Assembly (NCBI RefSeq): GCF_050920415.1
Contig: NZ_CP169309.1
Source of the DNA: Escherichia coli
GTDB lineage: Bacteria; Pseudomonadota; Gammaproteobacteria; Enterobacterales; Enterobacteriaceae
Length of the DNA stretch: 64,000 nt
Reading direction: 5' to 3' (one strand)
Under the pieces are notes generated by a model. The model worked only from the letters and a program-made list of their open reading frames with translations, made no database searches and was not told the origin of the DNA. A program made the translations under genes and the position numbers. Of the stretch, positions 42,743 to 42,916 are shown one piece after another. The stretch's first letter is position 1. Each line of letters begins with the position of its first letter.

Positions 42743-42916
42743 CCTATAGCCCCATCAGACGACGCCACCACGGGCGGCGCGGCTGCTGGCCATTGAATTT
42801 GTACATGTGGCTAGGGTTCCAGCGCTGACCGTTCGGCAGTTCTATCCAGCCCGTTGAACCACTCGGCAGTTGCATGGCTGGTGATTCTTTTTTCAGGTAA
42901 GTAACAAACGCTTTCA
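42743..42916 (-). CDS. Small hypothetical phage protein (~57 aa), absent from the supplied ORF track
   Basis: ATG at 42916 preceded by GAGGGAG RBS; hand-translated (not rechecked codon by codon) as MKAFVTYLKKESPAMQLPSGSTGW...; fills the gap between cII-like and next gene. Confidence 0.4.

Follow-up and report, generated by a model that had tools for sequence, protein, structure and literature searches.

A described relative of the gene reported here is fil of phage 186. The 186 record states that "overexpression blocks cell division," and this is the sole functional statement that we retrieved for 186 Fil. A fil'-lacZ translational fusion reports the activity of the promoter pR in 186 (PMC7708051), which indicates that the pR transcript of that phage is translated into Fil. 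According to the 186 record, apl is followed by cII, fil, dhr, tR1, and a DUF2732 gene, with the remaining genes leading on to A.

Small early phage proteins that arrest host septation are known from other systems. Lambda Kil and T7 Gp0.4, each about 50 amino acids long, are made early from a phage operon and stop host septation, and both act on FtsZ. For Fil, full-text literature searches turned up no paper that addresses how it works.

An expression study touches on the family as well. In a transcriptome of Cronobacter sakazakii, a DUF2724 (Fil-family) gene was upregulated approximately 10-fold in the ofloxacin (XY001-Ofl) group (PMC11394748). Such an increase would be consistent with a 186-like prophage undergoing SOS induction, an interpretation that is not discussed in that paper.

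Here, we describe a fil-like gene in 64,000 nucleotides of Escherichia coli DNA; "the window" denotes this whole stretch.

A fil-like gene in the early lytic operon of a prophage

The fil-like gene lies on the minus strand at positions 42744 to 42917, stop included, and consists of an ATG, 57 codons, and a TAG stop, as evidenced by the ORF list, a match to PF10893, identity to a RefSeq protein, and its dN/dS. The encoded 57-amino-acid protein is MKAFVTYLKKESPAMQLPSGSTGWIELPNGQRWNPSHMYKFNGQQPRRPWWRRLMGL. The first-pass annotation of this DNA had placed an ORF at 42743 to 42916 and left the strand unstated; the ORF exists, but the coordinates were one base off, and the frame is on the minus strand. 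The length of about 57 amino acids, which had been obtained by hand translation, was correct.

A Shine-Dalgarno motif, GAGGGAG, can be read from the sequence at 42922 to 42928 (minus strand). It ends 4 nt 5' of the ATG, which confirms the ribosome-binding site originally proposed, and it shares its first bases with the TGA stop codon of the cII-like gene (42927 to 42929). The sequence leading into the start codon is ...CTGATGTGAGGGAGAACC-ATG, and the 25 nt 5' of the start are CACCGGCCTGATGTGAGGGAGAACC. The end of the cII-like gene and the fil-like ATG are separated by 9 nt, and another 8 nt separate the fil-like stop from the ATG of the next gene at 42735. The ORF fills the 191-bp gap between these neighbors with zero overlap on either side, in agreement with the earlier description of a frame that fits a gap of approximately 190 bp.

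The length of the ORF alone is not above chance. The window holds 184 ATG-initiated ORFs of at least 57 codons, of which 64 encode 57 to 80 amino acids. A Shine-Dalgarno-like motif of at least 5 bases at the right distance precedes just one of those 64, and that one is the fil-like ORF. We judge the ORF to be a real gene because of its homology, synteny, and codon substitution pattern, which are the decisive evidence.

Gene content identifies the host element as a 186/P2-like prophage (Peduoviridae, Quadragintavirus-like) in the E. coli chromosome, with the core genes dps-glnHP to its right. The prophage gene list places the integrase gene at 46312 to 47352 on the plus strand. The CI repressor gene (43819 to 44403, plus strand) matches Pfam PF07022 and PF16452, is named "phage repressor protein CI" in RefSeq, and is divergent from the early lytic operon, which runs leftward. 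First in this operon is an apl/cox-like gene for a 73-amino-acid protein (43461 to 43682, minus strand) that matches phrog_575, "Cox-like excisionase and repressor" (E = 1.5e-27). The cII-like gene (42927 to 43430, minus strand) comes second and encodes 167 amino acids; it matches Pfam PF06892, Phage_CP76 (E = 3.7e-46), and is annotated as "phage regulatory CII family protein" in RefSeq. fil is the third gene. Next downstream is a gene for 142 amino acids (42307 to 42735, minus strand; phrog_33841), the start of which was taken from the RefSeq annotation of an identical locus, and then a gene for 133 amino acids (41906 to 42307, minus strand; phrog_3935, E = 1.7e-51) that is annotated as a hypothetical protein. 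Neither the 142-amino-acid nor the 133-amino-acid protein has a match in Pfam, NCBIfam, or PADLOC.

Between the 133-amino-acid gene and the DUF2732 gene, a pattern scan detected a terminator-like hairpin with a T-run (41863 to 41891, minus strand), a consensus match only, from a scan in which terminator-like sites were no more numerous than in shuffled sequence. The position of this hairpin matches that of tR1 in 186, which lies between dhr and the DUF2732 gene. Beyond the hairpin are the DUF2732 gene, a Dam methylase gene, and a gene for replication protein A.

fil is therefore found in the window at the exact position that it has in 186, with the 142-amino-acid and 133-amino-acid genes at the place of dhr. 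The 142-amino-acid protein shows no similarity to 186 Dhr (E = 4.8). This conserved pair of genes also comes after fil in Enterobacter prophages and in Escherichia phage ESSI2_ev015. The initial argument was that small regulators of 186 in this region, fil and dhr, made a gene at this position plausible. Its positional part held, inasmuch as the ORF is a fil homolog right after cII, but the 186 record calls Fil a cell division inhibitor and not a regulator.

The adjacency of cII and fil extends to every relative whose neighborhood was examined, with 1 to 9 nt between the two genes. For instance, fil comes right after cII in 186, ESSI2_ev015, Enterobacter prophages, and Yersinia phage vB_YenM_324, where the gene is annotated as "cell division inhibitor." In one distant family member, the gene upstream of fil was identified as cII by Pfam.

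Two further features of the window lie outside the early lytic operon. First, a gene for a KAP-family P-loop NTPase, located between cI and int (44461 to 46265), is split into ORFs of 80 and 497 amino acids, whereas its counterpart in E. coli JNE25-001 is one intact coding sequence of 594 amino acids. The split results solely from 1 bp in a poly-A run at approximately 44692 to 44698, which is A7 in the window and A8 in JNE25-001. The intact protein matches the PADLOC candidate defense family PDC-S49 (E = 1e-128) and Pfam KAP_NTPase. Three readings of the split could apply: the gene may be a pseudogene, the homopolymer may have been misread in sequencing, or a defense gene carried by the prophage may be switched on and off by a slipped-strand mechanism. 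Second, Rfam matches the 64-kb window at a single site, naRNA4 (CssrE, a nucleoid-associated noncoding RNA) at 3755 to 3832 on the minus strand, with a score of 73.7 bits against a gathering threshold of 59.5, far from the prophage early region. Rfam detected no noncoding RNA in or near the fil region.

Membership of the Fil family

Several profile and pairwise comparisons identify the window ORF as the counterpart of phage 186 Fil and as a member of the PF10893 family. The protein matches Pfam PF10893 (Phage_186_Fil, formerly DUF2724) with 42 bits (E = 7.7e-11), for which the curated gathering cutoff is 25 bits. The alignment spans only positions 1 to 35 of the 56 in the profile; the C-terminal tails of the family are unconserved, and so a full-length match is a weak criterion for this family. 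Among the PHROG families, the protein matches phrog_7623, phrog_816, and phrog_32377, the last two of which are labeled "cell division inhibitor." BLASTP against 186 Fil (NP_052282.1) gave 38% identity over 34 amino acids (E = 4e-7). No model in NCBIfam or PADLOC matches the 57-amino-acid protein.

The similarity is concentrated in a conserved N-terminal core, F-x3-L-K-x-x-S-P ... G-W-I-E-L-P-x-G-Q-R-W-N-P, of which the elements SP…GW…G-RW-P are common to the 57-amino-acid protein and 186 Fil. When 18 sequences, among them 186 Fil, are aligned, G23, W24, G30, R32, W33, and P35 do not vary. In a wider alignment of 50 sequences, the invariant residues are M1, G23, and G30, with near invariance at L8, S12, W24, W33, and P35.

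Searches of much larger sequence collections returned the same family. Among 5.8 billion proteins, 77 homologous clusters were found, and all 77 carry PF10893; the clusters named by source come from Citrobacter, Enterobacter, Klebsiella, Lelliottia, Salmonella, and E. coli. When 1.84 billion cluster representatives were searched by profile, 60 clusters (50% identity) were recovered at E ≤ 1e-3, a number that makes the Fil family a small one.

The gene is not new to public databases, which annotate it, and in this sense the finding is correct but ordinary. The 57-amino-acid protein has the same sequence as WP_047657784.1, a RefSeq protein named "phage filamentation protein Fil family protein," which is annotated at the corresponding position in E. 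coli JNE25-001 (99.7% identical DNA) and in E. coli EH09-18-41. Moreover, a Fil-family coding sequence is annotated at this locus in 32/32 E. coli genomes that have a matching prophage segment. The copy in ESSI2_ev015 (Peduoviridae, Quadragintavirus), YP_009877600.1, is 98.2% identical. The description of the ORF as unannotated consequently does not hold, and it arose solely from the size cutoff of the ORF list. What the first-pass annotation did recognize was a genuine, cataloged phage gene that this cutoff had hidden, and its reasoning from position was sound: the ORF is a real small protein-coding gene that follows cII in an early lytic operon, as evidenced by the PF10893 match, the BLASTP match to 186 Fil, and the same order of genes in 186.

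A probable role in the arrest of host cell division

We consider it probable that this fil gene of a 186/P2-like prophage encodes a product that blocks host cell division. A sequence of events can be proposed by extension from 186. When CI repression is lifted, or upon infection, the early lytic operon would be transcribed from pR, as inferred from 186. Ribosomes that finish translating cII would most likely reinitiate on fil because the fil Shine-Dalgarno motif overlaps the cII stop codon, and this layout of the two genes suggests translational coupling. Fil, a small and basic protein with a net charge of +7, would then most likely bind a component of the host division machinery and block septation, as its homology with 186 Fil implies. 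Infected or induced cells would stop dividing and form filaments while the phage replicates.

Some observations temper this proposal. The similarity to 186 Fil is limited to the first ~38 residues, which counts against reading the protein as a division inhibitor, and the 57-amino-acid form might be weakened if the tail is needed for activity. Also, the overexpression phenotype may not reflect the natural role of 186 Fil.

Neither structure prediction nor comparisons by fold or profile pointed to a molecular target. AlphaFold2 models built from a close alignment of 66 sequences and from a diverse alignment of 50 sequences have low confidence (pLDDT of 64.6 and 67.5 and pTM of 0.24 and 0.27, respectively). 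Beyond short helical turns at the ends, the sole element in these low-confidence models is a small hairpin around GWIELPNGQRW. With Foldseek, none of the PDB folds matched at E ≤ 0.001, a result that is uninformative given the low confidence of the models, and a search of the PDB by sequence profile gave nothing below E = 0.4.

The alternative that survives best accepts the gene as a genuine member of the Fil family but holds that its natural role is something other than a division block and that filamentation is a side effect of overexpression. We regard this as unlikely. In its favor, overexpression is the only setting in which a function of 186 Fil has been noted, and fil adjoins cII at a distance of 1 to 9 nt in every relative examined. 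Other roles that could be named include a cII-linked modulation of the host membrane proteases FtsH and RseP, comparable to that of CIII for lambda CII, as well as host takeover, phage exclusion, and counterdefense. FtsH and RseP do degrade 186 CII, but the same work describes 186 as being without a CIII-like factor (PMC7708051), and a comparison with the lambda CIII profile was negative. The lack of PADLOC matches also counts against this alternative, and the fixed gene order may merely reflect a conserved operon.

A narrower version of this alternative holds that Fil-family proteins are partners of cII, small proteins produced alongside CII that act on FtsH and RseP, or on another envelope target, to tune the decision between lysis and lysogeny, with filamentation as a by-product of overexpression and a core of 40 residues as the active portion. 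We give this version very little credence. If it were true, the tail-less 57-amino-acid allele would identify the 40-residue core as what is active. A block of host cell division stays our preferred reading of the gene.

Purifying selection and the 57-amino-acid form

fil is under purifying selection as a protein. Relative to diverged prophage copies, its dN/dS is 0.015 to 0.11, and across prophage copies of increasing divergence, dS rises to ~1 while nonsynonymous changes stay at 0 to 3 per 57 codons. When all pairs are summed, the differences at the first, second, and third codon positions number 194, 129, and 699, respectively. The ATG is kept in all fil copies compared, and 10 related prophages have purine-rich variants of the Shine-Dalgarno motif at the corresponding position. 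A reading frame that is not conserved among related prophages had been named at the outset as the observation that would count against the gene; instead, the frame, start, and ribosome-binding site are kept in all relatives.

The length of the protein is more variable than its core. Fil relatives have 57, 62, 64 to 66, or 75 amino acids, and they diverge mainly after residue ~42. In the 57-amino-acid copies, the 3' end of the gene is 2 nt shorter in total than in the 64-amino-acid (prophage copy L012) and 75-amino-acid (L009) forms. As a consequence, a TAG enters the frame 7 codons sooner and the protein ends without the FRGRYGx tail; the 57-amino-acid form also loses the usual overlap of 11 to 14 nt with the start of the next gene. 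In comparisons with L009, L012, and L015, positions 42744 to 42760 contain small indels beside a variable G-run, which is G5 in the window and G9 in L008.

These differences raise the question of whether the 57-amino-acid form is in decay, as a truncated version of a 64-amino-acid gene made nonfunctional in this lineage by a small 3' indel. The shortened 3' end, the early TAG, and the lost tail are what such an allele would have, but the distribution of the short form makes decay highly improbable. The 57-amino-acid form is common to prophages at a dS of ~1.0 (L006 to L008), with only 2 or 3 nonsynonymous changes per 57 codons and a dN/dS of ~0.02, and the last 20 residues (38 to 57) are identical in every 57-amino-acid copy. 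Because copies that have diverged to this extent retain identical residues 38 to 57, we conclude that the short form is a maintained variant and not the product of recent decay. In addition, tails vary widely across the family, and so the tail is no conserved requirement. A form that lacks the C-terminal tail of its 62- to 75-amino-acid relatives and is still under strong purifying selection is the one small new detail of this analysis.

The maintained short form also bears on which part of the protein is active. Tail-less alleles narrow the likely active part to the N-terminal core, and we infer that the activity resides in this conserved core and not in the tail. An amphipathic helix in the C-terminal tail was considered and dropped as evidence. 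For the longer relatives L012 and L011, the hydrophobic moment was suggestive, being reached by only 2 to 3% of shuffles, but in the 57-amino-acid allele it was not above chance (70% of shuffles reach it).

Finally, a chance ORF in a noncoding spacer between cII and the next gene, a notion to which the 64 window ORFs of similar length lend their number, is refuted by the Pfam match above the cutoff, the presence of PF10893 in 77/77 homologous clusters, the strong excess of third-position differences with low dN/dS, and the conserved start, ribosome-binding site, and gene position. The fil-like ORF is a genuine gene.

Comparison with known phage systems

Lambda Kil and T7 Gp0.4 offer a working analogy only and have no detectable sequence relationship to Fil, as hhalign comparisons gave probabilities of 0.2% and 0.05%, respectively. 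The Fil-family alignment was likewise unrelated by hhalign to 186 Dhr, an inhibitor of host DNA replication (probability of 0.3%), and to lambda CIII, an FtsH inhibitor (probability of 0.1%).

At the other extreme, YP_009877600.1 from ESSI2_ev015 and WP_047657784.1, both of 57 amino acids and 98.2% and 100% identical to the window protein, represent the same gene with essentially no difference. The likeness to ESSI2_ev015 includes the neighbors, which are cI, the cox-like gene, cII, fil, the 142-amino-acid and 133-amino-acid genes, and the DUF2732 gene.

Between these lies 186 Fil, the family member with a recorded phenotype. It has 75 amino acids, as opposed to 57 here, and the 38% identity is confined to the first ~38 residues; the 57-amino-acid protein lacks, or has other sequence in place of, its "SQSELLKGL" segment and its hydrophobic, basic C-terminal tail. 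In addition, 186 fil overlaps dhr, whereas fil in the window is followed without overlap by the unrelated 142-amino-acid gene. Nevertheless, the likeness is substantial: both are small, basic proteins assigned to PF10893 that share the N-terminal core (S-P ... G-W ... G-x-R-W-x-P), and both are encoded immediately after cII in what is, or by analogy would be, an early lytic operon under pR control in a Peduoviridae phage.
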